Shown here: piece by piece, positions 446 through 29,077 of the stretch | Layout of the letters: the number at the start of each line of letters is the position of its first letter | Numbering within the stretch: the first letter of the stretch is position 1 | Origin: Podarcis bocagei | Taxonomy: Eukaryota | Strand: one strand, 5' to 3' | DNA length: 64,000 nucleotides | Assembly (NCBI GenBank): GCA_964188305.1 | Contig: OZ076897.1 | Program-made: the position numbers and the translations under genes | Notes under the pieces: model-generated | Told to the model about the DNA's origin: nothing | The model's input: the letters and a program-made list of their open reading frames with translations, nothing else | Database searches by the model: none

Positions 446-875
446 TGTAATGAATATAGGGGTTGCTCGTGCGTAAGTTGCCACCACTCCTGGCTATGTT
501 GCCTTGTTAAACCTTTTCTGTCTGGACAGCCCTTCACTTCGTGGCTGCCTCAGTCGCTAGCAGAATCCGTCAGTGGGCGTTTCTTAAACCTTTTCCAGCA
601 TAAAAGCTGTTTGACGCCAAGTCTCCTCCTACTCTCCCTGCGCGGAAGTCTTCTGCGCAGGGAGGGTGTGGGTAGCGGAGGACCCATGCTCTCCCCGCTG
701 GTGTCCAGTGAAGAGTCCTGTAGCCCTCTCGCAGATTCCCCCATCTGCCCCCCTTTATCCCTGGTGTTGAGCTGATTTCCTTCCCCCGCTGAGCTACCTC
801 TCCCTGCTGGGTCCCTCTCCAGCATCACTTGAGAGCCTTCCCTCCGCCTCTGGCTCCGATGTCAGTTCCCTGACA
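446..875 (-). mobile_element. Solo LTR (Gypsy-like, family A) containing a coding frame
   Basis: Minus strand runs TGTCAGGGAACTG...TTCATTACA with a perfect 5-bp TSD TTACC (441-445, 876-880). Homologous at both ends to 23392-23874. Confidence 0.85.
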
Positions 876-994
876 TTACCCATTACAGTACCCTTCCATT
901 ATAAGCATTAAATGTGAAAGGGAAGTCATAAAGCAGGACTCCACTTCTAGAAGCGGGAGTTTGGCCTGTGTCCATTGGCTTTAATCCAGATTTG

Positions 995-1248
995 TTTGTT
1001 TGTTGCATTTATATGCTGCCCTTCCTCCAAGGAGCTCTGGGCATCATGCATGGCTTTACTCTGATTTTAGACTCCCAACATCCCTGCAGGGTAGGCAATG
1101 CTGAGAGATAGTTACTTGTCCAAAATCACCCAGTGAGCAAGGATCTGAAGCTTGGTTCAAGCCTGTTGGGCAAAAGATTCCTGCATTGCAGGGGGTTGGA
1201 CTAAATGACCCTTGGGGTCCCTTCCAACTCTATAATTCTATGATTCTA
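995..1248. mobile_element. Degraded SINE fragment followed by a CR1-type 3' tail
   Basis: 995-1140 resembles a minus-strand squamate SINE remnant. 1175-1248 is the CR1 3' terminus GGGGGTTGGACTAAATGACC...CCCTTCCAACTCTATAATTCTATGATTCT. Confidence 0.5.
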
Positions 1249-4200
1249 TCCACCACCTTGCACTGACTGTATGTGCACAGTAACAGTACTGTGACTATCA
1301 CAGTTTTCTGACTGTAAGTGCAGTTGCCACGCCAAGGAAACAGAGTCATGCAGAATCAAGTACATAATACTTGCCACATGCTTTCAACTGTTTCCGCATA
1401 CTCACTGCAGTATTCCGTGATACTTTCTATAGACTGGGCCATGGATCATTGTAACTGCTAATTGGGAGGAAAATAGATTGTACAAGCCATGCCAGCATAC
1501 ATAAAATTTATAAGCTGATATAGAATACCAAGTGAGGTGATTAAAGTAAATTAAATACTCCAGCAGCACAGTTATTGTGTTGTTTACTGCAAAGATGACA
1601 TATATTCAGGAGATATGGCATTGAAGGTTTAAAACAGAATAAAATGCCCACAGGTCTTGAAGAAGGATTTTGTTTGCTTATAGGCTTTATGAGTCCCAAA
1701 CATGATGCTTTGTTAACTTTTAGGGGTACTTATTACTGGCATCAAGAAAGAAGTAGAAGCAGAGTAACATAATACCTGTAAGGTTTCACTCCACTCCTGA
1801 CATCTCAAAGGCCAGGTTCCACAGATCCGCACACCATTAACTGCAGATGTGCAGACTATTTTCAGTCTTCCAGCCATAGCCACACTGGAACTCTTCATAC
1901 CCTTTCAGAGGCGTTGCCTGAGGTTTGAGTGGCTGTCACTGACTCTAGAGACTGGCATTGGTGTTAGACTGGCGTAATAGGTATATGTTATAGTTATGTG
2001 GAGGGGATGCGCTTAAAGTTAAAATAGTTCATAATAAAACATATAGTAACTCAACCTTTCCTTGTTCTGAATAGTTCTTGTCCAGAGAGTCATTAAGAAA
2101 ACGAAAACCAAATAAAGTGCTCAAACACATAGCATGTTATTTGAATGACTAATATATAAAAGACCGTGTAGCTAGGAAGGGAGCACACAAATTATTCCCT
2201 TTCAACAGAATGAAACATAAATAAACCTTGATAACTGTTGGCTCATGGATGATCAGCAGTTGCATAGGGCTATTCAGGATTTTTAAGGGAACTGTAGATG
2301 TTTATGATGCTTGCTTTTGAAAGCTATGATAGGAGCCCCACAGTATCCTGTCTGTTACTTTTTCAATGTTCCAGTCAGATCTGGAATCACATTCAATGGC
2401 AAGAAAAGCTTAATGGAAAAGATTTGCCATTAAGTGAAGAATCGAGGCATAATTGGGACAATTAAGGTGCCAAAAAAAGCCCTGAGCAATTACTGAATTG
2501 CTCACTTTTGCATTTCCTTACTACATGGGGCATTTTGATGATCTTAATCTTAAACCTTACTTTAGCATTAACACCAATGTTGAAATCCTGTTTTTTGGAG
2601 TTTCAGAACTTAATAATAAGAGAACACACTATGCTAGGAAGTTCTGTCTTGCCATAGAATATTTCTGCCAGTTTCCTGTCCTGAAATTATGATGTTAGTT
2701 GCCTGGAAAAGCCAAAAAAATGCTAAAAAGAACAAACTACAATGCTTATGTTGTAGTCTTAACACCCAGAGAGGGCCATAGGTTCCCCATCCCTGGTCAG
2801 CTACTGTACATTGAAACATATATTCCCAGCTTAAAATTCCAGCCCAGCTAAAGGTCTGTGTCTTCTGCATGGAAAGTTCTCCAGAGGAACGAGCAAGTCA
2901 GGCTGGCTTTGCAGTCCCTCTTCTGAAGAAGTGAAGTGAAGAATAAGACTTGCCTGGTTTAAAGCAGGAGGTTACACACTTCTTTCCATTTTATATTTCC
3001 GAAAAGGAGGCAAAAAGATGAAGGTGGTTTGGAGCACTGGCGTAGGGTGGGAGGGCACATGGACCATGCCCCACCCTGCATGCGAGCTCTTTTCCATTAG
3101 CAGCAGGGGCTGGGGAGTGTGGAGGGTCTCTTCACCCTCCACTCCTCTGCTCGGCGCACCAGTGCTCACCCGTTGGTAGCAGGGGCTGGGGAGCGGGGAG
3201 GGGGAAGAGCACCCTCTGCCCCCGCTCTGTGAGCCCCCACCTGGCAGCGTCAGTGGCGAGGGCTGGACAAGTGTGCTCCGCACCTGGCGCTGATGAACAG
3301 CCACTGGTTTGGAGACACTTAAAAAAAAAAAATTGCCGAAATCTACACTCCCAACATTTCCCCTGACATTCCAGTGATTTCCACCCAGACACTGTTTCCG
3401 AAGGCCGAATCCCAGCTATGTCTGGGAAATTCTGGACATATGGCAGCCCTAATTTTATGTATTGTGACTTGCTGTTATTTTTATCGATTATAGTTTGGTT
3501 TAGTAATTCCTTATTGTAATTGCTGAGAGTGGCTTTCAGTTCACTTGCTATTCTGAGAGGTAATTTTATTATGCCCTATTATATTCTAATCAATTATTGA
3601 CCATTACTTTATTTGGTATAAGATATTTATTTTAAAGTCATATTTTCATTATGACTTTTTTGGATTGGATTGTTCTAAGATGTGTGATATTTGTTGTGTA
3701 TTTTGTTGTTCCTTCAGCTTGCAAACCACCTTGTGAATAGCAATATAGAAACGTGGTATACAGATTAAAAGTGAAAATGAATTAAAATATTGTGAGGTTC
3801 AGATTTAATGCCCCTGGCCTGGTGTCACAAGAGCAGGCTCTGAGATTGAGGTTGGGTGTGCATGCAGTGGGAGCCACTGAGACCGGCAGAGCCATGCTTT
3901 GTTTGCTGAGCATGGCACAGCTTCTGGACTTGGCAGCAGTGCATTAAGGGCTCATACATTACATTTCAGTCTCCAGGATAACTGCTGCCTTTCAATCTCT
4001 AGGTAGCTGTAAGCCTTTCTGTGAGCAGAAATGTAAGTCACTGCAGGTTAACATTCACCAGAATACACATGCAACTTCAAATTCAATTCCAAATGTTCCA
4101 TGGCAACAAAATAATATTTTCCAAAACGTGTTGAAAAACTACCTTTCTGCAAGTGCACGGTGTGGGGTGGGAGAAAATAGGAATAACTACTCTAGATTTT

Positions 4201-4807
4201 CCTATTCATGTAATCAGTGATGCTTCCTGTGCTATACATATGTGGGGGCGACTCTTATCTAGTTTCTTTCAACCCTGGAAACCCAGCATGGAGAATAATC
4301 TCTGCAGACTATGCTGCTCATCCATGGCAGAATTATAGGAGAGCTGTCTCCTATAACTGGATGGATTCTTTCTTTCCCTAACCATTGCTGATGAATACAC
4401 AAACATGCCTAGATGCCATGAATTATAAAAGAGGCGGAAAATCAGCCCATTAATAAGATTCTGAGTGACTTTGTAGCAGAAGAAGTACCAAAGTTGTGAA
4501 ATGAATTGTGATACGTGCTATAATTTTCACTCATTTAGTATCTTCAAGGATAAATGTTACATATCTGTGCATCAGTCGGGCTGATCTCAGTCCAGTAACT
4601 ACAAATTATTGTAGTCCAAGACATTAGTTTCTTAGACGGGAAGATTGGAAATTTCAATCCATTTTATTGATGTTAACTTTGGGAAAGGACACCACTGTTT
4701 CAGTCTTGCTCCCCCCCCCCCCCCGAATGCTCTCTTTTTTAAATTAAAGAAATAAAGTGTGAGAAGGTTAATAAAAAATATCTAACTAAGTATTACTTCT
4801 TTCTCAG

Positions 4808-4880
4808 CTTTTTGCCTGATTACATCAGTGGGGACTTTGATTCTATTATGCCTGAAGTAAAGGAGTATTATACAGTCAAG
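4808..4880 (+). CDS. TPK1: Thiamine pyrophosphokinase 1, internal coding exon (73 nt): (S)[24 protein letters not shown]
   Basis: Polypyrimidine tract and AG acceptor (ttctttctcag|) with a GTAAGT donor. The peptide matches vertebrate TPK1 [24 protein letters not shown], including the GDFDS motif. Confidence 0.96.
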
Positions 4881-5299
4881 GTAAGTTTTTTTAAAATTAA
4901 AATTTCCTAGAAATCATCTTTAACACTCATTTTGCTGCTCTATCGCCTGACACGCTTGGGAAATACTTCCCCCTGTAGCAAACTGTTCTAAATAAGGAAC
5001 CCTGGGTTACTGGGTCTCAGGCAGAAGCAAATCAGTGTATTTCTGATATATATCACTTTCTTGTGATCCATAACACCATTCTATCCTTTTTCTTAATCTG
5101 TGAACTTAAAAAAAAAAAACACCTTACAAAAATCACATCTTAAATATGTATTTTCTCTCAAAACACATGCTTCAAAACATATATTGATAGGCCTTTTTTT
5201 GATCCAAGAACTGTGTTGGAATGTTTGGGAAGTAAGAATCTCAGAGCAGATCAGTTTGTGTTAGAATTCACAGTATCAAATTCCTGAAGCATCCCTAGT

Positions 5300-5531
5300 C
5301 AGGGCCGGCCCTACGATGAGGCAAAGTTAGCCATCTGCCTCAAGTGAAGGATGCTGAGGTATTGGGAGTGACCAGAGCTATGAGTGCCATGTGGCCCCTA
5401 TGTGAGTCTGTCCTTTCACCAGTATTGGAATAAGATTCAACTACTAGTCCTGTTGGCTTCTGTATGTGCCCCAGGGGAGGGCACCATCTTGTCCTTCGCC
5501 TCAGGCAGCAAAATGTCTTGAGCTAGTCCTG
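5300..5531. mobile_element. Non-autonomous DNA transposon (MITE, hAT-like)
   Basis: Imperfect TIRs CAGGGCCGGCCC ... GAGCTAGTCCTG and an internal GCCTCAGGCAGCAAAA motif also seen near 41335. Confidence 0.5.
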
Positions 5532-6144
5532 TCGCTGGTCAAGTGTTCCTCAGTGAGCATACTGCAGATGACAGACCAGCATCCCTTGAAGCAGTGTTTC
5601 CCAACCTTTTGCGACCTTGGCCCCCTTCCCATCTTGTTTCCTTCCTGTGCTCTCCACCCTCCCCCCCCCCACCAGCAGAAAGGTAGCTATTTAAATGTTT
5701 TGTTTGTAAATAGAACATGTTTGTTTAGAATTTTATAATATATACAAAATACAATTACATAAAATGATAAGAACATGATGAAATATTGTTGAAGCGGAAA
5801 AACAGATCTGGAAGGGACCCCGGGGTCATCCTTCTAGTGCAACCCCCTCAACGTAGGAAACTCTGCTGAAGCATCCATGGCAGATGGCCTTCCAACCCAG
5901 TAGCGTAGCCGGGGGCAGTGGGCGCCCCCGGTGGCACTTATCTTGGGGGTGGCACATCAGAGCCCCAGGCAAACAAGCAGGTCCCCTTGCCCAGCCCTTC
6001 CCATTGCCACCCCACCTCACACTTACCTGACCTGGGGGTTCTGGATCTCGGGCTCTACAGGTCAAAACAGGAGCCTCTGCAGTCGCCCGCTCCCCCCAGA
6101 AACAAACCAGACTCTTGGCAGAGTTGGAGTTCCAACAGATATCG

Positions 6145-6282
6145 CAGCCTTTCTCAACCTGTAGGTCCCCAGATGTTGTTGAACTACAACTCCCATCACC
6201 CCTAGCTAGCAAGGCCAGAGCTCAGGGATGATGGGAGTTGTAGTCCAACAACATCTGGGGACCCACAGATTGAGAACCGCTG
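6145..6282. mobile_element. hAT-type MITE (same family as 34655-34791)
   Basis: TIRs CAGCCTTTCTCAACCTGT / ACAGATTGAGAACCGCTG with a palindromic interior (GAACTACAACTCCCATCA ... TGATGGGAGTTGTAGTCC). Confidence 0.8.
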
Positions 6283-8010
6283 AGAAATTGGGATGTTGAA
6301 GTCTCCCATGACTACTATATCTCTCCTTTTTGAATGTTTGGTAATCTGCTTTTTGAAGTCATAATCCAGTTTTCAGGCAGTCATCCTGACATCCACAGTA
6401 GGGTCACTGTTGTTTCTCTCTCCTACAATTTTTACCCATATTCCCTCAATCTGCTTTCCGTGCTCCAGGTCATGGATTTCTTCACAAGTGTAGACGTTCT
6501 TTACATATAATGCTGCTCCTTCTCTCTTCCTGTTTGGTCTATTCCTTTTGAACAGGTTATCCCCCTCAATTCCTACATTCCACTCATGAGTCTTATCCTA
6601 CCAGGTTTCAGTAATGCCTACCTGTACTAAAAGCTCCAATTCATCTTGCTTGTTTCCCATACTTTGTGCATTTGTGTAGAGACAACTGAAACCCTGAGTC
6701 ACTCCCTCCAGCTGCCTTCTTCTTGTGATATCTTGCCCTAAAGCAGGTTTCAGGAGCACCACCTCAGTTTCCTGTGCATCAATGAAGCTATTATCCCCAG
6801 TACCATGAGTTCCTCTGTCCCTCCCCCTGAAGTTTAAAGCTCTCTTGAAGTGGAGACCTTGATTCAAGAAGCCAAACCCTTCCTGAAAACACCACCTGCA
6901 CAGCCAGTGGTTTACCTCCAGTATTTTCCTCTCTCTTCCTGGACCACGACTTTCAACAGGAAGGAGTGATGAAAAGACTACCTGTGCCCCAAGTCTCTTC
7001 AGCTCCCTGCCCAGAGTCTCATAATCCTTGAAGCCTGGTATTATTTGTACCGACATGAGTCAGAAGGAAGGGGTAGTGATCAGTGGGTTTTTTATGACTT
7101 GGGAACTTCTCAGTCACATCATGAATCTTTGCACCTGGAAGATAGCACACCTCCCAGGACATCCTGTTTCCTCCTCACACTACTGCCTCTGTCCCCCACA
7201 CATCTCTTCCTCCTCTGTGGAGTGGCAAGAATCGTTCTGTACATTTCCAAAGCCTGCTTGGAGTGTTCTAAGGTCTGCTACTGCTGTTCTTGAGTTTTCC
7301 CCTTCTGTCTGTTGGAGCTTATCTGAATATTATTAGAATAGGTTACAAGGGGTGGAACCTTATGGTTTGTGTACTTCCTACTCGTCCCTCTCAGCTTGCC
7401 TTCTCTACACTGCAATGCCATTTCTCTGATGTCTCCATGGAAGGTAGCAAGTGGGTTATCAACATCCTCATCTACCATCAGTAGCCTAGGATCTGAAGGA
7501 CTTAGGTCAAGAATGGAAAAAGACTCCTCCAAGTCCATCCCCTCCTGTCTCTTTCACCTCTGGGGCATGGCAGGAATTCTGCACACTGTACCTTTCACAG
7601 CCACCTTGGTGTATTTTGAGGTTGGCAACTGCTGCCTAGCTTTTCTGGACACCATAATCTGTGTCCAATGTGAGAGCATGGAAGCAATTTTGCAACTCTA
7701 AAGACAAAGTGTGGTTTGTGACTGTCCCACTTCTGTGTGTCACATTCCTCCAGAGGTTTCATCTCCTTGCACTGGGTGATCTTCCTGCTCCCTAGGGGCA
7801 CCCAATCTGTGTTGCTGTACCATCACAGTCCACTCAGCTCTGTTGAGAAACTGCATGTTGTCCTATAGCTGGAGGTATGGCTAGGCGGGCCTCAAGTTCT
7901 GTACCTTCTCTTCCGGCAAGACAACCAGTTTGCACTCGCTACAAGTGTACCGCTGCATGTTTTCCGGCAGAATGACAAACATGGCACAGGTGGCACAGGT
8001 CACTGCAGGG
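6283..8010 (-). mobile_element. CR1 LINE 5' part: degraded ORF1 (Cys finger, esterase domain) and start of ORF2 endonuclease
   Basis: Minus-strand peptides VTCATCAMFV...YTCSECKLV (ORF1 finger), DYETLGRELKRLGAQVVFSSLLPV...VNHWLCRWCFQEGFGF (CR1 ORF1 SGNH esterase) and CLYTNAQSMGNKQDELELLV...GITETW (APE endonuclease N-terminus). Contains stops and frameshifts. Confidence 0.85.
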
Positions 8011-8635
8011 TAATCCAAGTAAATTCACTTATAAAAACATGATAACTTGCCGGAAAATGTAATATTCCAAAGATACTTTCACTGTGTTTACAGTCTGAAG
8101 GGAATAGGCACCAGAAGTATCAAACCTACTGTGTCATTAATAAATACATTAACACTACAGATAGCTGTGTCATTAATCTTTCTCTTTTGAAGGCCCCCAA
8201 AGATACTCGGTAGAAATAGGCTTTCAGTGAATCTTTATGTCAACTTGCTTTTTATTCAAATGTCAGCAAGTTTACATGAAGATTATATAGCAGCTACTAT
8301 TAGTCCTTTGACAGAGTATCAATCATTTGGCAAATGGTATAGAGGGCAAATGGTGTACACTTTATTTTTCTTGATTTCTGCTTATCTTTTCTGGTTATTA
8401 TGTGAAGAAACAGACTGAGAGTGTAAAGCTGCTCAACTATGAAGTTTTATGGGATACTAATTACTGTTGAGTGACTTTCAATGGAATGTACAGTGGAAGT
8501 ATGGAGTTTTTTCTGGAACAGAAACATGCCTTTTCACATATTGAAGAAAGTCTGTGGTGGCCTTCAATTTAATAAATTAAATTTGCTATAATTTACAGGG
8601 AAATATCACCTATAACATTTTCTTTTTAAATTTCC

Positions 8636-8717
8636 TGTTGTTGTTGTTGTTGTTGTTTAGTCATTTAGTCGTGTCCCCATGGACCCCATGGACCAGAGCA
8701 TGCCAGGCACTTCTGTC
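8636..8717 (-). mobile_element. BovB 3' tail fragment
   Basis: (TTG)n followed by TTTAGTCATTTAGTCGTGTCC...CCCCATGGACCAGAGCATGCCAGGCAC, matching the tail of the copy at 28300. Confidence 0.75.
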
Positions 8718-10277
8718 AATACCATATTAAGACAGAGCTTCACAGATTCTAGCTAGGGTTTTTAAAAATGACCATTATTTCCTAGTACCCAGAAGTAACA
8801 CCCCACCATGAATATATCTACACTTAGCAAAATGCAATAAATTATTTTCATCAGGTTAAGAAATAGATAAAGTGAGTTTTTTATTTTTTAAAAAATGATG
8901 TAATTACTTAACTTTCAAAATTTTCATCCTTTTTTACATCAGAAACAAAATGTTTATAAAAAGTTGAAATGCTATATGTAGCATTTAAAGTTGCTGATTT
9001 TAAAGCCAAAAAAGTGAGAATGTATGGATCTCAGCAAATGATGCTGCAGCAAAACCCTCTAATTACTTGTTTCCCATTCAGCCTTAGGGGAGAAGTCACA
9101 CCTTCCCTTTAGCACACAAAGGACTGATAAGTGCTGTCTGGCAAAGACATGGTGAAATCAAGAAGTAATTATCAGTGCTATAGATATCTCCCCAACTTCC
9201 AAAAGGTGTCAAACAATCTGCCTGACTGACAAGGCACAGCCAGCTCTCAGTCAGTACCCACCAGGCTCTCAACTCTTAAATGTGGACTATAGCTTTATCT
9301 CTCACAGTCCCTCATCCCACTGCTGCTTTACACATGAGGAGACCAGAAACATGTTTGTAAGTAGCTATAATAGGCTAGAACAAGGGTCCCCAAACTAAGG
9401 CCCGTGGGCCGGACAAGGTCTGAGGGACTCGTTTATCCAGCAAGCGGCAACACCCCCTGCCGCCACCTGCTCTTACCGGGGCTGCACTTCTGGGTCGGAG
9501 GAGCACCCGAAATAGCTTGTGCCCAGAATAATTCCTGGCCAGGATTTTGAATTTGATTCCACAGTTTAACACATAATGTAATATCCTGAAGCTTACCATT
9601 TTTACAAATTATTTTTGTCCAGACCTTTCTTCTTCCCCCCTCCCCTACAATAAAACCTTCTTTGTTGTTGTGGACCTAATGTTTTGTATATTCCTATTTT
9701 AGTTCCTTCATTTTCTTTTTAGATATCTAGATATTGCTAATGAATATGTTTTGTAGTGTATTGATGAAGAATTGGTATTTCATTCACTTCGGAGCAAATT
9801 CACATATTATTAGATAGTGTATCAATGTTGAGATCTATTCACATGTGTGTATTAAATTTCTCAGCTTGCAATATTTCTCATGTACACTTTGGCCCCTAAA
9901 GCAATTCTCCATCATGAAGGAAGACAAAAATAGAATTCAGTAGAATAAATAACAATATAGTTCCCTGTCCATCAAATATTATAATCTTCCAGTGCACAAG
10001 AATGTAATTTAAATACTTTCCCCCATTTTATATAGTTATCTAACTATCCAAAAAAGAAAGAAAAGAAGCAGGCATTTGTTTCTGCAGTTGGAACTAAAGG
10101 TAACTTCATTTTACATACAAAAATCTTCCAGAGCAGCTGTTCCAACTGAATTCAAAATAGTAGAATAAGAAAACAGGATGAGAGGATCTTTAAAAGTGTA
10201 GCATTCACATTTTATAATGTCAGCTCCTCCTGTTGCTACAAATGGGCTAAAAGCAGATGCTTGCATAAATGGTTATA

Positions 10278-10503
10278 CAGTGGTACCTCTGGTTGCAAAC
10301 GGGATCCGTTCCGGAGGCCCCTTCGCAACCTGCAAAGAATGCAACCCGCGGGTCGCGATTTACCGCGTCTGCACATGCTCATGATGTCCTTTTGCGTGTC
10401 TGTGCATGTGCGAGTGGCAAAATCCGGAAGTAACCCTTTCCGGTACTTCTGGGTCGCCACGGGACGCAACCTGAAAACGCGCAACCTGAAGTAAACTTAA
10501 CTG
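10278..10503. mobile_element. Tc1/mariner-pogo (Tigger-like) MITE
   Basis: TA|CAGTGGTACCTC ... CTG|TA termini; related to 37520-37772. Confidence 0.75.
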
Positions 10504-10563
10504 TATAACTGTTTCTCCTGCATGACAGAAGCACCCCGCAGGATGGGGGCTAAGCTTACAGCA

Positions 10564-11096
10564 TGTCACAGACTGGGTGGACGCAGAGGAATGGTGGGAG
10601 GAATCATCTGGGGAACTCCCAAGGGAAGAAGGCTCAGAGTCCAGGGCCTGGTGGTGGGATGAGGGAGAAGACTGGGAGAAGGAGGTGTCAGAAGCAGGAG
10701 GTGGCTTAGTGAGCTAGAAGAGCCTGTGACAGAGAGAAGTCCAGGAGGAGGAAGGCCAAGAGGCAAGAGGAGCCTGGCAGGTGAAGAGTCACAGGTACAG
10801 CGAGCTCCTCTCCCCACCTGGTCTCCCAGAACCTGGAGAGGAATGAAAAGGGCAGAGAGGAAGTTAGCTTCACGCAGGTGCAGTCTCAGATTGCTTAGGG
10901 AAAACCTTGGGGAGGAGGGGACTTGGGCAGCTGTGGGGACCTTCCTTCTCAGCAACTGTTTCGTGAGGGCAAGACCTGCCTCAGAAGAGTTGCTTGTGCT
11001 CGTTAGGCCTGACACTCCTCTGCGAGTCCTGTTTTTGCTAATAAAGAGTAAACTCCAAGTTGCTTGGTGTGATTTAGTGCTGTCTCGCTCCTTTCA
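10564..11096 (+). mobile_element. Solo LTR (family B) with internal coding-like frame
   Basis: TGTCACA...CTTTCA ends, 5-bp TSD CAGCA (10559-10563, 11097-11101), AATAAA at about 11040 and a purine-rich U3. Confidence 0.8.
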
Positions 11097-14000: not shown

Positions 14001-14210
14001 CCTCATGCCTCTTTCCAAGACCCTGGTAAGCAGCCCTCCACCTTGGGGGGCATTTCTGGGGGTTCCTGACTTTGCACAATTTTGCATTTGCACATGGACC
14101 CCCAGAACCATACTCTCACAAAAACTACATTCCCACTGTAGTCTAAATCCAGTAAAGTTGCTCCTGGAAGGAGCCTGTCTGACTGTAGAATTTATCCTCA
14201 TGTTAGTCCG

Positions 14211-15098
14211 TGAACCCCAAAATCTGGGATCCCCTCCAAAACAGTGCCAAAATCTGGCAACAGTTTTGCAGCATTTTGCAGCAAAAATCCTGTGTTTTGA
14301 AGCACCCAATCAACTAAGCAATTGCTACTCAAAGCTAGGGTCATAGCTATCACCCCAAAACCCAGTGTTGACCAATTCACTGCAAAACAGTGCCAAAGTG
14401 TGGCAACAGTTTTGTAGCGTTTTGCAATAAAACCCCACATTTTGCAGCACCCCACCAACTGAGCAGATGCTCCGTAACTTCAGAAGCATAATGTGTGATG
14501 AGTGAATGGAAAGAGAACAGTCTGGGGAATGTGTCTGCAGATGCCACATTTTAACAACTTTAATATTAAAACACCATTTATGAACTGTAATGTGTAGTAA
14601 ACTTGAGTCTTTGGAAAGTTAGCAATTTAATAGTTGTGTGGTTTCCTTTCAGGAGTTATTCATATTTTAAAGGCAGCAGAATTTAAATATTGTCATCTTT
14701 ACAGAGATAAGAGGAATTCGATATATTCCCTGAAGGTCTCCAGGATATGTCTTGGTGGCAGTGTGGAACCAGGGATCCAGAAAGCTCTTCATGGAAGGTC
14801 ACCTGTAGGATTTGAATTATGTCAAGAAAAATGGGGATGGTGTATTGCCAATAATGTGAGTTGCAATTGCTCAGTTGGTGGGTTGCTTCAAGACATAGAA
14901 TTTTTGCTGGAAAACACTGGAAAACAGTTGACACACTTTGGCACTGTTGTTGAGTGAATCAGACAATGTGAATTGGGGTGATAGCAGTTGCTCAGTTGGT
15001 GGGGTGCTGCAAAACACGAAGTTTTTGCTGCAAAATACTACAAAACAACTGCAAAACTTTGGCACAGGCTTGGAGGAGATTCCAAATTATGGGGTTCA
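14211..15098. mobile_element. Foldback-like element with long modular inverted arms
   Basis: 14211-14465 and 14868-15098 are diverged reverse complements. Each arm holds two tandem subunits (ACAGTGCCAAA...TTTTGCAGCA...CACCCCACCAACTGAGCA). Confidence 0.65.
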
Positions 15099-15488
15099 TA
15101 GTTAATTTGCCTCCTTGGCTCCACTAATGTTAACCGATATTACTAGTTTCATTACTGTAACAGTTAATAGCTACAATATGCAGTGCAGATATGATTCATT
15201 TTGAAATAAGAATATAGTGAGGAGGCTGCAAAGGAAAAGATACCCGCAACAACAGCAACAGCAGAAGCATCTTCCAAAAGCAATCCCCAAATTAGGGTGT
15301 GAACATAAGACCATGTTCCTGTTCACTTTTACCTCTCATTTCATTGTGGTGTTTATAGGCAGCCCTAGAAAAATCGAAAACACTTAAAAAAAAAACACAA
15401 GCCCATGAGCTGATGAGGTTCTAAAGTTATTTGTGGTCTGGTTTTTTACTCAAGAAATATTTGCAGTATTTATCTGGTGGATTGTTAG

Positions 15489-15601
15489 TAGGGTTGCCAT
15501 ATTTTAAAAAGTGAAAATCCAAACACAATCCGGATTTTCCTGGCCATTTAAGCTATTTTCCGCCTGGACGTCTGAATCCCCGCCATGTCATGGCAACCCT
15601 A
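15489..15601. mobile_element. Short MITE with TAGGGTTGCCA TIRs
   Basis: TAGGGTTGCCAT ... ATGGCAACCCTA perfect 12-bp TIR; no clear TSD. Confidence 0.65.
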
Positions 15602-18600
15602 CGTTCGACAACCGAGCTTCCACTGTATATGGGTTTGTTCTTTATTTTATTTTAATGTACCTGTCTATTGGAAATATTTAAGTTGTGCACATTATTTTCA
15701 TGTCTGGACATCTGTTTGCTTGTGAGTCAGAGTTTGACCTTCCTTCCCAGGAGATATGCCTTCATGCTTTAAGATGCAAAGGTTTGTTTGTTTGTTTCTG
15801 TAAAATGTATACGCCACTTGATTGTAGTTAAAAAACCACAAAGTGTTTAGATGTATATTTAATATTTTACGTATTTCATAGAAGCATAGACTTGTAGAGA
15901 TAAAAGGTCTCCAAGGGTTCTCTAGTCCAACTCCCTGCAATGCAGGAATCCCAAACATGGTAGGTGGCCATCCAACATCTGCCTAAAAGCCTGCAAGGAA
16001 GGAGAGACCACCACCTCTCGTGGGAGTCTGTTCTCCTTAACATTTTCTTACATTTTGATTTTTATCATGACCAATCCTCATCAGTGAGTTTTTATGGATG
16101 GTGGGGCAGGTTATACCAGTCCAAGGCGACACAAGTCTGTATATGGATCTTTGCACACGGAGGTGCTGCAGATGTGCAAAAAGCAATACAGAAAAAATGG
16201 AGTCAGTGAGGAAATTAACGTAATGAAAACTGACAAAAAGGGCTGGTGCAAGTACACCCAGAGTGTGTTTTCTTGTTGAAATGAACCAGGACACCTCAGG
16301 GCAGTATTGCTCTCGCACAGCTCCCATTCACTGCATTTTGGCATACGCAGGATAATTTTTTTAGTGAATCCTTTGTTGCTGATTGCTGATGCCTTACCGT
16401 GCTGTCTCCAGCTATGGCTGCAGCTGCAAACAAAAAACGACAACCTCGTAGATAATTGTTGTTAAAATTGGAGTAGTATGGTAACATAAGCTAGGATGTG
16501 TCGTATTAGATCTATTATTTTGAAGAATTCTACTGCTTCAGTCTTTGATTTTAAAAAACGAAAATTAAAGGGACTTGTTATTCAAACCAGGAAATTGTGG
16601 GTGAGTCTTTTAAAAAGAAAAGAGGGGGGGAAATTGCAAGAGGAGCAGGGATTAGCAAAAAGTGAAGATTAAAGGCACAGTTAAAATGAGCAAATAGCTC
16701 AGAATTCAAAGGAGACAAAGTGGGTGGTAAATGAGGGAAATGTGTAGGAGTGTCAGAGTCAAGGGAAGGAAGACGGACCACTTCATTAAATCCAGAGCAT
16801 CCTACTTGGCTCAGATCACCAGATGGCCACCGAATGCAAGGGCACCCAGACCACAACTGCTGTTAGGGAAATGTGCAAACAAGGGCTAAGTCTCCCCTGC
16901 CTGTGCAGAATTGTAGAAATTTAGGATTAAAGGGACCAGGTATGGGTCATCCAGATGTGCTCCAGTTGCAAGAGATGATGACAATACGTGATGTATGCAT
17001 TTAACTTTTTATTTCTTTATATATTTCTTTATATAAATAAATCTAGATAACAGGACTCAAGGTGGCTTTTATTTATTTACAATGTTTGTATTATGCCCTT
17101 CTTTACCGACTGCATGGGGATTCTTGTGAGGGAATTGCTGACTTTTCCCTGGTTTAGGTTATTTTGGGCGCAGACCTTTCGGGGCCGTCTGCTGCTCATG
17201 CCCACTGGCTTACAAAAAAGAATGCAAATAATAAATGTAAATAAAACAGAATCACATTAATTGTGTCTCAGCTGGATCCAGAGTGCTGTTCTTTCATGGC
17301 TTTTTGTTTCTTTGGGCTATTGGAGAAAATGATCAGTACAGAAGCACAGCCTTTTGCGTTGTGGATGCTTCCCAAGGCAGGCTGGTAAAACACACAATTC
17401 CTTTGTTAAACACAGCTAAGTCTAACTTCCAGGCATCACAGACAAGGAATTCTTAGTAAGACATCATAAACTCTCCAGAAGGGCATGTCACAGGTCTTGC
17501 CTGCTTGCTGTGGTGTTTGTTGCAGGTTTATGTATGATATTTACAGAGTTTAGGGATTTCACTGAAGTATAGAATTGATAGTCCTGATTATATGCTTAGG
17601 TTGGTAGCAGTTAGAGCTTTCCTATTAGTTCTTTTGGGTACTACTTCATCACTTTGAAATAAATTTGTATTTACTTCTATATGAGCTGAGTTTGTGATCA
17701 TTGGGTATAATGGGGAAATGAATTAATTTATAATTATAAATTCAAATTTCATATCTTTTAAATCAATTAATTGTGTTGATTGGTGAGTACATTGGGGAAT
17801 TCAGTGGATTTATATTTATGAATAAATATAGTTCTGCTTAATTCCTTTTGGAATTAATTCATTGGGTTATTGATTGGGAGGTACATTGGGAAACTAAATG
17901 ATTTGTGCTGCTTTCTTTGATTCTGGCACATTTGCGAATTTGTTTAAAAGTGTTACCAAGTTCATAATAGTGTTTTGTCATAGTGGCTTCTCAATTAATG
18001 GAACCTAAAATTGCAACAATTATCAGGGGGGGGGTGTCCATGATATTTCCTGTGGTCATAAGGGGGTCCTCATACTCATAAGGGTTGGCAACCACTTCTT
18101 GTGAGAGTGAAACAGATGCTTCCCCCCAAATATGCTATGATACAAATGATAAATAAATAACAAATATTTATAATGGTTTGATTAAAGAACCAATGGTTGT
18201 CATAAGCCAAGCCACATCCGTTCCACATATGATGTCAAAACAAGTACAATTTGCTGAAGGGGCAGTGTGATATCTTCTCCAAAGGACAACATGAAATTGT
18301 CAGGTAGTTCTTAATTCTTGAAACTTTGTTCACTTTTAAGTAATTAGAAGGATAGAAAGACTAATGCAGCCTCACTGTCAAATTTTGGGATGAAAGTTGG
18401 CAGTGAGGAAGAAAAACATGACTCAGAAACTGAATGGATAGGCTTCGCTGTAAATAAATATCTGCGTCATCCCACCATTTAATTTTTGTAGGGATGTTTT
18501 AGCATATAAAATAATGTGCCATTTCAGGTTAATTTCTGCCCTGCAGAACTCCATGAAACACTCTAATGTTGACTAATAACAGCAATTTGTCATGTGAACC

Positions 18601-19054
18601 TATCAAAATAATTGGCTGTGCTTCATCGGCAACGGCTGATCAGTCTGCGTAGCAATACCTTCTGTCACCAAGATGATATACAGTAAGTGCACAGATGTTA
18701 TTTACGGTATCTCACTAATTCTTCTTGTATTATGGGCTGTATTTCTTCTTGTGCACAATCAGCTTGCCATTTTTAAAATGAGCCCTGCACAAGATCTTCA
18801 AATCATTTCCAAATTTATGGGAATAAGTGGGTACTTGAATGATGCTTTAGATGCTTTAAATCATGTTTCCTTTTGAAGTGTGTGGGAATTAGCAAAGTTT
18901 TTAATAATGTTGGATTGAGTGATAGGGACAAAAGACCCTTCTGAAATGTAGGTAGTTCCTATTCTAATTATAAAAGCTTCTTAACAGAATGCACAGAAAC
19001 ACACAGTTGCAGCAATGTCTGACAAATTATTGAACCGGAAGGCTGGAGCCAACT

Positions 19055-19656
19055 TAGAATCATAGAATCATAGAATCATAGAATTGGAAGAGACCACAAG
19101 GGCCATCGAGTCCAACCCCCTGCAAAGCAGGAAACACCATCAGAGCACTCCTGACATATGGTTGTCAAGCCTCTGCTTAAAGACCTCCAAAGGAGGAGAC
19201 TCCACCACACTCCTTGGCAGCAAATTCCACTGTCGAACAGCTCTTACTGTCAGGAAGTTCTTCCTAATGTTTAGGTGGAATCTTCTTTCTTGTAGTTTGG
19301 ATCCATTGCTCCGTGTCCGCTTCTCTGGAGCAGCAGAAAACAACCTTTCTCCCTCCTCTATGTGACATCCTTTTATATATTTGAACATGGCTATCATATC
19401 ACCCCTTAACCTCCTCTTCTCCAGGCTAAACATGCCCAGCTCCCTTAGCCGTTCCTCATAAGGCATCGTTTCCAGGCCTTTGACCATTTTGGTTGCCCTC
19501 CTCTGGACACGTTCCAGTTTGTCAGTGTCCTTCTTGAATTGTGGTGCCCAGAACTGGACACAGTACTCCAGGTGTGGTCTGACCAGAGCAGAATACAGTG
19601 GCACTATTACTTCCCTTGATCTAGATGCTATACTCCTATTGATGCAGCCCAGAATT
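19055..19656 (-). mobile_element. Young CR1 LINE, 5'-truncated 3' end (ORF2 C-terminus)
   Basis: [23 protein letters not shown]...[11 protein letters not shown] and an (ATTCTATG)n tail; near-identical to the copies at 38606 and 52696. Confidence 0.95.
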
Positions 19657-20127
19657 TGTATGCTTTATTCATACAGAATTAACATCCTTTGTACAGTGTA
19701 GATGAGAGTTTTGCAAGCTACCCTGCATTTAAAAAAATCCCAGCAATTAAAATACAAACAACACAGCAGGGTGGGGGTTTCCATCCAGGAAAGGGGACAA
19801 AGAGAAATGGCCAGATGATGTCCCTTACTTCCCCCTAACAATTGTTATGCCTTGTGTCCTGGAACTCAACCAAGGGAAACTAGAAAACATCCATAGAAGT
19901 ATAAATGACAGGACAATCTGGTTTGGCTATGGTTTGAACTGTTTCAAAAATAGCCCCACACTAAAAGGGGGAATTATGAATCTGACCACCTTGTGCACCC
20001 TTTGCAAGAAGCGAGAGAAGGACAAATAACAGGAGTTTTATCAGTGAATGTCATTTTTTCCATTTTTCTTCTTTTAAAGCAGGAATGAAAAATGTCCATA
20101 TTTTGCAGTCCATTTTACTATCTAGAC

Positions 20128-20352
20128 CAGGGGTCAGCAAACCTTTTCAGTAGGGGGCTGGTCCACTGTCCCTCAGGCCTTGTGGGGGAGGCAGACTATA
20201 TGGGGGGGGAATGAATTCCTTTGCCCCACAAATAACCCAGAGGTGCATTTTAAATGAAAGGACATATTCTACTCATGTAAAAACATGCTGAATCCTGGAC
20301 TGTCTGCGGGCCAGATTGAGAAGGCGATTGGGCCGGATTTGGCCCCGACCCA
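20128..20352. mobile_element. hAT-type MITE (degraded)
   Basis: Begins CAGGGGTCAGCAAACC and has GCGGGCCAGATT/GGGCCGGATTTGGCCC subterminal motifs typical of hAT MITEs. Confidence 0.55.
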
Positions 20353-20467
20353 TGCTCCTGACAGTGATCTGGGTAATGGGAGGTGTACTTTTTAATACAA
20401 CCAATGAACTTCTTATAGTTTCTATAATAAAGTTGATACTGTCTAGGATAAAGGTGACTCCGTTATT

Positions 20468-21715
20468 AGAGTGTCTCCACCCTCATTGTTCTACCCGGAC
20501 ACTGAGGTCCAGCTCCAAGGGCCTTCTGGCGGTTCCCTCACTGCGAGAAGCAAAGTTACAGGGAACCAGGCAGAGGGCCTTCTCGGTAGTGGCACCCGCC
20601 CTGTGGAACGCCCTCCCAGCAGATGTCAATAAACAACTACAGTGGTACCTCGCAAGACGAATAACCCGCAAGACGAAAGGGTTTTCTGTTTTGGAGGCGC
20701 TTCGCAAGACGAATTTCCCTATGGGCTTGCTTCGCAAGAAGAAAGCCCATAGGGAAATCTCCGGGGACCTCTTTTAAATGCTGGTGGTGGGGAGCAAAGC
20801 CTTCCCCCCCCCCCTCCGGCCTTCAGAAGAGGTCCAGGAAGGTCGGCGGGGGCCGAAAAGGCTTTGCTCCCCACCGCCAGCATTTTAAAAGCAGTCCGGG
20901 ATAGCAGGGAAGCGCTTCCTGCTATCCCGGACGGCTTTTGAAGGCAGGCGGGGGGGAGCAAAGACCTTCACCCCCCGCCCGCCTTCAGAAGAGGTCCTGA
21001 AGGCGGGCGGGGGGCGAAAGTCTTTGCTCCCCCCTGCCTGCCTTCCCGGGAGAGCGGAGAAAGGCAGCTGGTTTCTCCGCTGTCCCGGACGGCTTTTGAA
21101 GGCAGGCGGGGGGGGGCAAAGACTTTCGCCCCCCGCCCGCCTTCAGAAGAGGTCCAGGACCTCTTCTGAAGGCGGGCGGGGGGCAAAAGTCTTTGTCCCC
21201 CCTGCCTGCCTTCCCAGGGGCTTTTACATCGCCCCGGACAGCGGAGAAGTCCTCCGCTGTCCCGGGCGATTTTAAAATGCCGCCCGCCAGCATTTTAAGA
21301 TCGCCCCGGACAGCGGAGAAGTCCTCCACTGTCCCGGGGTTTTTTAAAATGCTGGGGGTGGGAAGAAAAGCCCTTGTCCCCCCCCCCCAGCCTTCAGAAG
21401 AGGTCGGGGGACAGACTGTCCCCGGACCTGGTCTGAAGGTGGTTTCCCTAGGAACGCATTAATTGATTTTCAATGCATTCCTATGGGAAACCGTGCATCG
21501 CAAGACGAAAAACTCGCAAGAAGAAAAAACTTGCGGAACGAATTAATTTCGTCTTGCGAGGCACCACTGTATCTGGCTCTTAGAAGACATCTGACGACAG
21601 CCCTGTTTAGGGAAGTTTTTAATATTTAATGCTGTATTGTGTTTTTAATATTCAGTTGGAAGCCACCCAGAGCGGCTGGAGAAACCGAGCCAGATGGGTG
21701 GGGTATAAATAATAG
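20468..21715 (+). mobile_element. L2 LINE 3' end, split by a MITE at 20640-21569
   Basis: Peptide RTLRSSSKGLLAVPS...RQRAFSVVAPALWNALP (L2 ORF2 C-terminus) resumes after the MITE. The 3' UTR ends GGGTGGGGTATAAATAAT. Confidence 0.85.
20640..21569. mobile_element. Tc1/pogo (Tigger-like) non-autonomous element with GC-rich palindromic interior
   Basis: TA TSDs (20638-39, 21570-71) and TIRs CAGTGGTACCTCGCAAGACGAA / TTCGTCTTGCGAGGCACCACTG. Confidence 0.9.
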
Positions 21716-21894
21716 ATGATGATGAAGATCATGATGTCAGGTATGCCAAGGCCTTCTGAGAGAGATGTGACATTAAAACATGGAATAGTTCAATTTCCTA
21801 CTGCTTTTGAGAACTTTTTTATAAGGAAACTATAGGAAAACCTTTTACCAAAATGGGGGAACATTTGATTAAAATTTGGTGGGTTTACTGGGTG

Positions 21895-22050
21895 CTCTCT
21901 GTGGCGCAATGGGCCAGTCCATCTGGCTGTTAACCAGAGGTTTGGTGGTTCAAGCCCTCCAAGGGATGGCTGTCGGCAGGATTCCTGCATTGTAGGGGAG
22001 TTGGACTAGATGACCTTTGGGTTCCCTTCCAACTCTGATTCTGTGATTCT
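21895..22050 (+). mobile_element. SINE with tRNA-Asn-derived head and CR1-derived 3' tail
   Basis: 21895-21968 aligns with vertebrate tRNA-Asn(GTT) (GTCTCTGTGGCGCAATCGG...GGCTGTTAACC...GGTGGTTCGAGCCCACCCAGGGACG). It is followed by the CR1 terminus GTTGGACTAGATGACC...CCCTTCCAACTCTGATTCTGTGATTCT. Confidence 0.75.
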
Positions 22051-22702
22051 GCTAGAGGCTAGCTATGACCCATGGACTCCCTCTTTAAAGCAGAGTTGGT
22101 TCGATTAGGAGAAGTGCACAGATCTTTTGGGGAACATAAATCATGTACAATTCTTTTTTTATGTCATTTTCATTCTCATCTACCAACCAAATCTTGTATG
22201 TGGTTTGAAAGAAATGCTCAGTTTCTATTATTATTATTATCATCATTATTGCTCCTCGGGAGGTCCATTAAAATAGGATATATCATTTTCCATTTGATTA
22301 GATTGCATTTAGCTAGCAATTTCGATAGCTAGCTGTCACTTTCAAAATACTGTCAAATTCTTATCTTCTTTTATTGTTGCACTTCTGTTATTACAACAAT
22401 AAGATTAGGGAAGATCAAAATATAGAAGCAGAATGTAATTGGTATCAAGCAGAATATTCTGTAATGTCATAGAATGGTGATTGATGGGTATGCAAACATA
22501 AAATGTTAATACCTTCAATTTATTGGGACGTTTGCTAGAAATTGTAACAGGCAAAAACTAAGCCTTTCTAAGCCCTTTGGTGGAACTCAGCTTTGGCCAC
22601 GTTATGCCCATTTTTGGTTTATGGCTGCCCTGAGATGCTTCCATTAAAAAGTGAAGAGTTTGTTTTCTCTTAAAGTTGCTAGAAGCCCTTATCAATGTAA
22701 AA

Positions 22703-23056
22703 AAAGGTAAAGAACCCCTGGACAGTTAAGTCCACTCAAAGGCAACTATGGGGTTGCAGCAATCATCTTGCTTTTCAGGCTGAGGGAGCCAGTGTTTGTC
22801 CACAGACAGCTTTCTGGGTCATATGGCCAGCAGGACTAAACCACTTCTGGCGCAACAGTGACAAGTGCCAGAGCACACGGAAACGCCGTTTACCTTTCCG
22901 GCAGAGCAGTACCTATTTATCTACTTGCACTGGCGTGCTTTCGAACTGCTAGGTTGGCAGGAGCTAGGACTGAGCAACGGGAGCTCACCCGAATTGCGTG
23001 GATTTGAACCGCCAACCTTCAGATCGGCAAGCCCAGGAGGCTGAGTGGTTTAGACA
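22703..23056 (-). mobile_element. Sauria-type SINE (older copy)
   Basis: AAAGGTAAAG tail at the left end, and the same body as 46934-47303 in reverse. Confidence 0.85.
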
Positions 23057-23167
23057 ACTTTCTCAACACTAGTAATGTACAGTGGAGCTTGCTTTGTTTT
23101 TCTTTGTTAGAAAATAACTTGAAGCATCCCAGTTCTTTAGAAAAATCAATGGTGGCACCTTGTTTTA

Positions 23168-25422
23168 TTTTTATTTTTTTTAAATCATATTTATTAGAGT
23201 TTCCAATAAAAACAGAAAAGAGATATAACAGAAAAGAAAAGATAGAAAAGATAGAAAAAAGAATTTAAATCCTTACTTTCATAACCTTCTTTCTAGGACT
23301 CCCTCCTCCCCCTCCCGACTATATTCCCCTTTCATTAATTTAGTTCCACAAGCTCTCATTCCCAATTTAAAACTTGATATGTTTAACCCATTGTCAGGGA
23401 ACTGCCATCGGAGGAACAGGTGGTGGAAGGGCTCACGGAGGCTGGGAGAGACTCAGCAGGGGAAGCAGGAACCAGCAGGGGGAGAGGTGGGTCTCTGGTG
23501 GAAGGGCTCACGGAGGCTGGTAGAGACTCAGCAGCTGAAGCAGGAACCAGCAGGGGAAGAGGTGGATCTCTGAGGGAAAGCGAGCAAGAGGGAGGGCTCA
23601 GGGACACGTCCAGCGAGAACAGTGGGGAGGTATCTGAAGCTCCCATAGGGAGACCCACTCCTCGCCGGAAACTGTCACGCCGCGAGTCCAGAAGACGTGT
23701 TTCTGTTAAGGAGCTTTTATGCTGGAAACGATTCCGAAAGCAACCACTGTCGGAATCTGCAAGTGACTAGAGCAGCCATGTCTGAGGGGCTCCGTCACAG
23801 ACAGAGGTTTGTGGACTTGCACAAACTCTGAGGGACTACGATTTTACGCACAAGCAGCTCATCATCCCATCACACCCATTAACCAATTTAAATTTATACA
23901 ATCTTACCATCCATCTTTAACAGAAAAAGAAAAAAGATTTCCCCCCCAAGATCTACCCCAATTTCCTTCCACGAATTCCCTCTTCTTTTTTTTAAACATG
24001 TTAGATCAAAATACCATGGTATACAAAAGTTATATAAAGAAATAGAAGATAAAAAATATAAGAAGATTCAAAAAGTTGGTTACATAGCCTTTGGATTCCA
24101 AAACTCCCCCTCCCTTCCCCGGTTTGAGTTCCCCATGTCCATCAGTCTATATGTTATCAGCCTGGAGGTCTCAAGTCCATAGCCAAATTTTTCCCATTCC
24201 ACCTTGCCGGTTTTCTTTTAATTTGTTTATTTTAATGATGTTTAACTTCAAAAATCCAGTCAAATAGAGGCCTTTAGTTTCCTTGGTCTTTGTTGCTCCT
24301 CCCATTGTTCTTTCCGTGTCGTAGTTGGTCCTTTGTTCTTTTTATTCCTTACTTTCTCAGGTTTCTTGTCTTGTTCAGCTGCTAAAACGTTCTTATTCCG
24401 AGATCTGGTATCTCTACAGAGGTTTGTTATTCAGGAACAAAAACTTACGTCCAGTCCCTTCCTTTCTTCAATAGAGAATTCTATTGTCTCCTTTTAATGT
24501 AAACACCTCTGTAGACAAAATACTATTTCAGTTTTGCAGCTTTCCCAGAGAATAAGTCCTGTGCTCAGCCCAGAGTAATTTTCCACATACGATCACTTGT
24601 AATGTCCCGAAACCCCTCTAGGGGGATTGCAGTAACTTTGTATCCTCTAATCCAAAAGTCAAGTTGTTGTTTCTTTCCCCCCCCCCCGACGTTTTATATC
24701 CATATAATGTCAATTTGTAACAGAATTAGCCAGCAAAATACTTGTAACAAAGTCCTCTTTATATTCTCAAGCTTTGACAGCTACTTTGACAGCTGTCAAA
24801 GTCTCCATCTCTCTTCGCCAGGCTCTGCGAATTGCCCCGGTTCCCAGGGGGGGTTGCCTTTTCCCTCTCACCCTCCACTCTTCTCCTCCAGCACAATTCT
24901 TGTAATTTCCCATCGTGGAATTAATAATTTTTATCAGCAGTAAACTTCTGAATCGATCTTGGTTACCCAGTCCTTGTTTTAGAATGTTTACAATCAGGGG
25001 GGGACTGACTTCCTTTTTAGATCACCCCCGCTCGTGCCGAATCCGAAAAAAAATTCTTTTTTTCTCCTTTTGTACCCGGTTTCCCAATTACTCACGGGTT
25101 GTTGTTAATAGTCCGAATTTCCAATGGAAGAAGCCAGCGCTCTCCGTTGAATGGCATGCGGCTGCGCTCAGCAGGGGAAGCAGGAGACTCAAAGCACCAC
25201 GCCATTCCCCGGCACCCGATCGGAAGCCTTTAAAAAGGCTCCTTCACGAGTCGGGAGGGCGCTAGCGGTGCCAGCCGAGTCACCATGTCCACGGGCTCCG
25301 TGCCCGTGGTTTTTAAGGGTCCCCGCGTCGCCGGCGCGGTAGGACCCAGCCCCTGCCGAGCAGACTCCCTCCAGAGCTCGGAGGGAGTCCACCATTCGGC
25401 GATGGCGCCAACCCGGAAGTCC
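23168..25422 (-). mobile_element. L1-derived non-autonomous retroelement (CpG-rich 5' UTR, degraded interior, A-rich tail, no ORF2)
   Basis: 17-bp TSD GGTGGCACCTTGTTTTA (23151-23167, 25423-25439). The minus-strand 5' end is GGACTTCCGG and there is a T-rich tract at 23168. Interrupted by the solo LTR at 23392-23874. Confidence 0.75.
23392..23874 (+). mobile_element. Solo LTR (family A) with an open reading frame from base 2 to a stop at 23770
   Basis: TGTCAGGGAACTG...CCCATCACA ends with a perfect 5-bp TSD CCCAT (23387-91, 23875-79). The frame VRELPSEEQ...LLCWKRFRKQPLSESASD* has no stops and contains an in-frame 75-bp tandem duplication. Confidence 0.87.
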
Positions 25423-28921: not shown

Positions 28922-29077
28922 TACCTGTGCTGCTGCAAATTGCTGAGTTCAGGAGGATCCACAAGCTATGAACTTAGTCCTCTAAGGGGAGTGCAAGCCC
29001 ATACCTTAGCCACAGCAATTCTACAGCAGGTCCCAAATGCACTCCTTTCTCTCCTGTTTCAGTGGAGTGATTTTCTG

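Follow-up and report, generated by a model that had tools for sequence, protein, structure and literature searches.

The window analyzed here comprises 64,000 nucleotides of Podarcis bocagei DNA (assembly GCA_964188305.1, contig OZ076897.1, here C12, in a genome of 1.6 Gb) and contains two diverged solo long terminal repeats (LTRs), each with a reading frame that opens at its second base. The question raised by this locus is why a retrotransposon LTR should keep a peptide. A preliminary description, made from the letters of the sequence, had proposed that the parent element extended an internal frame, either Pol/integrase or a spliced accessory gene, across the polypurine tract (PPT) and into the 3' LTR. 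Both repeats are, by their sequence features, solo LTRs of self-priming Tf1/sushi-type chromoviruses (Ty3/gypsy), and the LTR frame is almost certainly a selected tail of chromovirus Pol. The reading favored below, at a probability of roughly 0.62, is that the Pol frame passes the chromodomain, the PPT and into the LTR to a selected 38-residue basic end, likely a nuclear or nucleosome-docking peptide on a predicted-disordered integrase tail.

The features first described in the two copies were confirmed. Both elements (copy 1 of family 1 and copy 2 of family 2) run TG...CA between perfect 5-bp target-site duplications and start with TGTCAGGGAACTG, and the stop lies exactly 104 nt from the LTR end in both (TGA and TAG, respectively), so that about three quarters of each LTR is coding (326/430 nt, 76%, in copy 1; 379/483 nt, 78%, in copy 2). 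The peptide is kept through synonymous change: 23 of the last 30 residues agree between the copies, 12 of these by different codons, and for the last 38 the figures are 27 and 14 (nonsynonymous difference, pN, 0.20; synonymous difference, pS, 0.76; Fisher p ~1e-7). The in-frame duplication of copy 2, with a 75-nt period, is present and is absent from a sister subfamily (L237). Copy 1 is 2 bases shorter near LTR nt 73 than all five sister copies compared, matching the 2-bp slip proposed earlier, and this deficit brings its base-2 frame to a stop after 26 codons. DNA searches of the genome returned many sister LTRs, several of them paired (2390 and 3851 first-look candidates, which are not copy numbers). 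Among LTRs chosen by DNA search alone, the base-2 frame was open to the 104-nt stop in 30/30 copies of family 2 and 23/30 of family 1. Past the stop (446-549; 23771-23874) the families agree at just 50 of 104 ungapped positions; a TTACGCAC element near the LTR 3' end is retained in nearly all subfamilies, and AATAAA is absent from both window LTRs (446-875; 23392-23874).

In two-LTR copies of both families, Pol/integrase is read across the PPT and 110-125 codons into the 3' LTR to the reported stop, as had been supposed. Two-LTR family-2 copies contain separate gag and Pol frames, one such Pol being 1353 aa long and terminating at LTR nt 379; in a two-LTR family-1 copy (L149), Pol terminates at LTR nt 331. 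The 1353-aa Pol matched the Pfam families RVP, RVT_1, RNase H, rve, SH3_Tf2-1 and Chromo, giving the protease, reverse transcriptase, RNase H and integrase order (PR-RT-RH-IN) with a chromodomain at the integrase C-terminus that is the hallmark of chromoviruses. The whole element reads gag, PR-RT-RH-IN-chromodomain, acidic FxGF motif 1, acidic FxGF motif 2, PPT, LTR-coded linker, basic-CW-basic end and stop; the post-chromodomain extension amounts to ~200 residues, 100-125 of them LTR-coded. The reverse transcriptase tree covered only sequences from this analysis. As to a stop in frame shortly before the 3' LTR, which the preliminary description had named as evidence to the contrary, 13 of 14 family-2 3' LTRs were open for at least 132 codons upstream, the remaining one having a stop 40 codons upstream, and 18 of 30 family-1 3' ends were open from the chromodomain through the motif; these counts favor well-preserved copies, because the copies are the best-scoring search hits. 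The closest named proteins are from Podarcis muralis, which accords with a squamate, likely lacertid, host; three automatic predictions of that species in UniRef, named 'Gypsy retrotransposon integrase-like protein 1' (P0005-P0007), have the same tail (65-82% identical), unannotated there. Gag and Pol lie in different, overlapping frames at the gag-pol junction of the copy read (L061:4335-5318). Two chromovirus copies contain L1-like long interspersed nuclear elements (LINEs) whose ORF2 frames are long and open (L062-L063, L070-L071, L073), and the apparent family-1 LTR pair of L073 is a duplicated solo LTR around an L1-like element.

Selection along the tail was estimated from 16 natural copies in six groups, taken from 64 loci and chosen for an unbroken frame from chromodomain to motif, giving 102 between-group pairs. 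Between-group pN/pS was 0.28 in the chromodomain, 0.28 in the region through acidic motif 1, 0.20 in acidic motif 2, 0.74 in the PPT region, 0.73 in the LTR linker and 0.27 (0.17-0.40) in the last 38 codons, the intervals being approximate because the pairs have common ancestry. The 38-codon value stands against 1.57 for shifted frames, in agreement with the protein-level selection first proposed for the LTR frame, and became 0.33 when the six columns used in copy picking were removed. The selected domain of 100-125 aa described earlier must be shortened: strong selection falls only on ~38 codons, the linker of 65-87 codons has the ratio given above and the tail is predicted to be disordered. 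Mismatch at codon positions 1, 2 and 3 was 0.22, 0.14 and 0.43, and within the 38-codon end pN/pS was 0.31 in codons 1-20, 0.13 in codons 21-29 (a block that partly served for picking copies), 1.56 in codons 30-35 and 0.03 in codons 36-38.

The contrast within the end bears on the explanation that conservation acts on DNA or RNA, as promoter and self-primer, with the protein extension a tolerated read-through. This holds for codons 30-35, which are almost without synonymous change and, judged by covariation, are held as RNA: they overlap an 11-nt self-primer that covaries with the primer-binding site (PBS). An 11-nt complement between the PBS and a site 129 nt before the LTR end was found at 10 of 12 distinct 5' LTR junctions (the other two having 7 nt and none), two compensatory changes separate the families in this pair, and L149 and L237 also fit. 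The PBS thus appears complementary to the element's own 5' end and not to a tRNA, which is the hallmark of the self-priming class; self-priming of Tf1/sushi elements was reportedly described by Lin and Levin in 1997 and Butler in 2001. The self-primer bases encode P-L-[TS]-[DE]-S, so the T/S and D/E replacements earlier counted as protein conservatism both lie inside the self-primer and covary with the PBS. The first LTR codons and the PPT (0.74-0.78) are probably under nucleic-acid constraint as well, and the linker is weakly constrained. Codons 1-20, 21-29 and 36-38, however, vary mostly synonymously, shifted frames behave as stated above, and linker length differences between subfamilies preserve the frame; a purely nucleic-acid explanation is already refuted for codons 1-29 and 36-38 by these ratios and is, for the LTR end as a whole, very improbable.

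From the self-primer we infer a transcription start 129 nt short of the LTR end. Were the RNA to begin at the self-primer, all of U3 would be Pol-coding, with the stop ~25 nt into R, and the peptide of a solo LTR, which lacks an ATG, would lie 5' of the start site used by its own promoter. Promoter, self-primer and protein would then overlap within ~120 bases, which matters for LTR annotation and for the reading of selection. Four RNA runs gave low coverage in both directions, with reads mostly 88-95% alike, and no RNA start, RNA end or splice-like joint was found in these sparse, diverged reads.

This geometry also bears on a separate, spliced or internally initiated accessory protein of the sag or nef kind encoded by the LTR, or on host use of a solo LTR peptide, to which we attach hardly any weight. 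Most solo LTRs do retain the open frame, and an antisense mirror frame is also open, with a pN/pS of 0.36, a low ratio that is expected because the mirror frame shares wobble positions. Against this, the frame is continuous with Pol, lacks an ATG and lies upstream of the putative transcription start, the four low-coverage RNA runs held no splice-like joint, and within-family variation is near neutral. The spliced accessory gene offered earlier as an alternative is unneeded with a continuous Pol. Within family 1, 21 nonsynonymous, 7 synonymous and 1 stop variant were counted (27 of 30 anchored LTRs picked by DNA search), and within family 2, 12 nonsynonymous and 5 synonymous (30 LTRs). These counts lie near the neutral 3:1, so selection would have acted in replicating lineages and not on inserted solo LTRs; inserted copies, both window LTRs included, appear to decay neutrally. 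Because translation would use only the 3' LTR copy of a full-length RNA, the solo LTRs are presumably silent relics, and thousands of candidate solo LTRs in the genome may be relics of Pol coding sequence.

The mouse mammary tumor virus sag and HIV nef genes had been cited as precedents; the closest one is the plant CRM chromovirus, whose targeting motif (CR motif) is encoded in the 3' LTR (PMC3059260). In CRM group A and in Beetle and Bingo of Beta vulgaris, as in the window families, Pol runs into the 3' LTR and a putative targeting motif is LTR-coded (PMC3059260, PMC3605345). The Pol-into-LTR architecture is therefore already known, and the window families are not CRM elements: they keep a recognizable chromodomain 5' of the PPT, where CRM has the CR motif in its place, carry two acidic FxGF motifs, end in an unrelated basic-CW-basic motif, and are self-priming in a squamate host, whereas CRM is primed by tRNA-Met in plants. 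With the Tf1/sushi elements (V-clade) of fungi and vertebrates, in which self-priming has been described, they share PR-RT-RH-IN-chromodomain, SH3_Tf2-1, a 5-bp target-site duplication and a PBS matching the element's own LTR (PMC6317226), and differ in the ~200 extra post-chromodomain residues and a degenerate chromodomain cage.

The type I chromodomain is defined by a Y-W-Y aromatic cage (PMC3605345). In the window families the third position was E in 16/16 copies, and at the first position family 2 has Y whereas family 1 lacks the aromatic; without the third cage aromatic, methyl-lysine reading is likely lost. After the chromodomain follow two motifs, each made up of one aromatic residue, an acidic stretch of 8-9 residues that includes Ser/Thr, and FxGF (motif 1, FxGF in 12/16 copies; motif 2, FRGF in 16/16). 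In linker and FxGF they fit the definition of the TND-interacting motif (TIM), a ligand of the LEDGF integrase-binding domain (IBD): a helix with an F/V/L/I anchor, an acidic Ser/Thr linker of 8-16 residues and an FxGF required by LEDGF and HRP2, with tandem TIMs occurring in JPO2 (PMC9987994). The aromatic residue is conserved at the anchor position. An acidic [FL]xGF was present in 5 of the 150 best chromodomain-bearing representatives matched by the tail, all five in this clade. The host genome has two IBD genes, PSIP1 and a second that is likely HDGFL2, and its PSIP1 exon is identical to those of Podarcis muralis and two other squamates. The preliminary description had not recognized the LTR domain; its end is selected, and the stronger novelty lies in the two acidic FxGF motifs 5' of the LTR, outside what that description covered.

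Under the favored reading, full-length RNA would be translated into a Pol whose integrase bears a long disordered tail, and this tail would tether the integration complex to chromatin. The acidic FxGF motifs would bind a TFIIS-N/IBD domain (LEDGF or HRP2), the LTR-coded end would provide an arginine-anchor contact with nucleosomes, a nuclear localization signal (NLS) for importin, or both, and tethering would replace methyl-lysine reading by the degenerate chromodomain. A specific chromatin-docking role of the tail is somewhat probable. Integration guided by LEDGF/HRP2 is a tentative proposal, binding being deduced from motif fit and selection, and we hold just as loosely the wider suggestion that this squamate clade swapped methyl-lysine reading for host mimicry, with tandem TIM/IBM motifs that bind LEDGF/HRP2 and an LTR-encoded nucleosome anchor. 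Lentiviral integrases bind LEDGF through a folded catalytic-core dimer and not through a linear motif. If the FxGF motifs bind, the result would be convergence on an HIV-1 cofactor by a different route, and if the whole proposal is true, a retrotransposon would have reached the lentiviral LEDGF tether independently by a linear motif, its entire U3 promoter doubling as coding sequence. To our knowledge, integration-site choice by vertebrate LTR retrotransposons is largely unknown; the short selected peptides described here (two fitting the LEDGF/HRP2 ligand definition, one LTR-coded basic end) provide material for its study.

A simpler account is that the end is merely an NLS or a non-specific nucleic-acid-binding patch of integrase, the acidic motifs being spacers without a specific host partner. 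The end of the window families, RRESRRR-x-x-VK-x-LLCWKRF, would suit it: the 38 codons have a net charge of +9 to +11 in two basic clusters flanking a hydrophobic core, and C-terminal NLSs are known in Ty1 integrase and have been proposed in Beetle chromoviruses (PMC3605345). Yet L, C and W are invariant despite synonymous variation in codons 21-29, and the terminal ASD is the most constrained block of the end (0.03), neither of which a plain basic NLS needs; moreover, from lineage to lineage the acidic motifs are constant in xGF (mostly FxGF) and in the spacing of the aromatic residue. We consider this account unlikely.

Related lineages in this genome carry variants of the same plan. Lineage C (Pol 65% identical) combines two FxGF motifs with a basic-ACW-basic end, and the limits of its LTR were only partly fixed; lineage D (Pol 57-58% identical) runs 102 codons into the LTR and has one FxGF motif. 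Protein P0135, 59% identical over integrase, has one acidic FLGF motif and LLCWKR, so that P0135 (LLCW) and lineage C (ACW) both keep a core flanked by basic residues. Lineage B (Pol 47-48% identical) has an intact three-aromatic cage and no FxGF, and its Pol runs 110-116 codons into the LTR, where the basic terminal stretch contains RRSARL, the first six residues of the HMGN acidic-patch consensus (PMC13347269). An acidic linker and basic end in the LTR were thus found in 4/4 lineages examined in this genome, which is no unbiased survey because lineages C and D were found via the tail. Lineage B (L209-L211, L181-L208) is a young family with a single gag-pol frame of 1558/1564 aa and a self-priming PBS.

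Several observations weigh against the docking interpretation. Motif 1 is LxGF (LEGF) and not FxGF in the 4 family-2 copies, the AlphaFold helix before it (residues 57-64) is of low confidence (pLDDT ~50), and pLDDT is <50 across most of the tail, only the chromodomain being confidently folded. A model of family-1 motif 1 (36 aa) bound to the PSIP1 IBD of Podarcis muralis (89 aa), run without alignments or folded controls, speaks neither for nor against binding (score 0.29, mark 0.34). Short motifs can also be matched through composition in low-complexity tails, acidic or basic. Searches of Pfam, PDB and the Atlas returned no match to the LLCWKRF end: LTR peptides gave zero Pfam matches at E<=1, the last 41 aa and the acidic-motif region gave zero matches in a PDB sequence search at E<=10, the Atlas returned only chromodomain clusters (scores <=0.80), and no homologs of the 261-aa tail were found among proteins of 143-457 aa. 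RRSARL is absent from the window-family ends, and the likeness between those ends (lineage A) and the lineage-B end falls short of significance, its score being reached in 85 of 1000 shuffles. The copies used for pN/pS were selected for intact frames and their pairs are non-independent. A resemblance of the end to the CENP-C motif was considered and, being unsupported by any analysis, dropped.

The motifs were compared with known tethers. TIM/IBM proteins (JPO2, MLL1, IWS1, POGZ, JIL-1) share the acidic Ser/Thr linker, FxGF and disordered setting, with a hydrophobic position in what would here be a helix (PMC9987994; 10.1101/624023), JPO2 also having two motifs in series (PMC9987994); here the motifs sit on a retrotransposon integrase tail and are putative ligands only. 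Nucleosome arginine anchors (HMGN RRSARLSA, the foamy virus Gag CBS, LANA) are, as here, short Arg-rich motifs in disordered tails (PMC13347269, PMC9040877), the HMGN-type RRSARL occurring in lineage B, at the equivalent LTR-coded position, and not in the window families. The accessible text of the TND review (PMC9987994) held no mention of 'transposon', and no published LTR-coded integrase tail in vertebrate chromoviruses, nor an FxGF in a retrotransposon integrase, was found in a search of partly available literature that left out Repbase, Dfam, GyDB, supplements and most subscription papers, for which reason an earlier description may exist. The comparison literature further includes PMC11640333 and PMC3601003.

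Table 1. Positions of the LTR features in the 64,000-nt window.
Position	Strand	Feature
446-875	-	Solo LTR, family 1, Tf1/sushi-type chromovirus, 430 bp; frame broken near LTR nt 73
441-445 and 876-880	-	Target-site duplication GGTAA of the family-1 LTR
550-666	-	Copy 1, last 38 codons of Pol and stop; Arg-rich stretch, LLCWKRF, PLTDSASD
564-574	-	Family-1 self-primer, 11 nt, complementary to PBS; first base is the putative transcription start (U3/R border)
600-605	-	TTTTAT ~31 nt 5' of the putative start, inside the LLC codons; possible TATA-like element, weak given synonymous changes there
23392-23874	+	Solo LTR, family 2, 483 bp; 99% identity with LTRs of young two-LTR copies
23387-23391 and 23875-23879	+	Target-site duplication CCCAT of the family-2 LTR
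23393-23770	+	Copy 2, 125-codon frame, relic of the Pol C-terminus; no ATG; 5' of the putative transcription start
23393-23653	+	Copy 2 linker, acidic, Gly/Ser/Glu-rich, weakly constrained (pN/pS 0.73); contains the 75-nt duplication (~23421-23578)
23654-23770	+	Copy 2, selected 38-codon basic/LLCWKRF end and stop (pN/pS 0.27)
23746-23756	+	Family-2 self-primer, 11 nt, complementary to PBS; overlaps codons P-L-S-E-S

A third solo LTR lies at 10564-11096 (+; 533 bp, TG...CA, target-site duplication CAGCA) and belongs to an older family, ~72% identical to its other copies. Its acidic frame from base 2 is broken, and a WSPRT-RGMKRAE-KLAS-R-SL stretch recurs in other copies; on these grounds the family may have a further Pol tail coded in its LTR. 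No internal region of this family was recovered. Elsewhere in the genome, contig C19 (96.5 Mb) is rich in these chromoviruses and in L1-like sequence, with one insertion site repeated many times, and may be a W-like or amplified chromosome or an assembly duplication. Targeting of L1 LINEs by young copies was considered, since 6 of 33 family-2 flanks and 2 of 35 other flanks were L1-like, and was rejected because all six family-2 cases lie on C19, itself L1-rich (67 of 264 control tiles versus 7 of 1056 elsewhere). In the window, a 270-aa frame at 55521-56333 (-) resembles what we take to be a Ty1/copia reverse transcriptase-RNase H, and a fragment at 28322-28948 (-) is presumably RTE/BovB-like. 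Three LINE fragments at 19140-19664, 38774-40155 and 52770-54080 (-), presumably CR1-like, are young and 97-98% alike.

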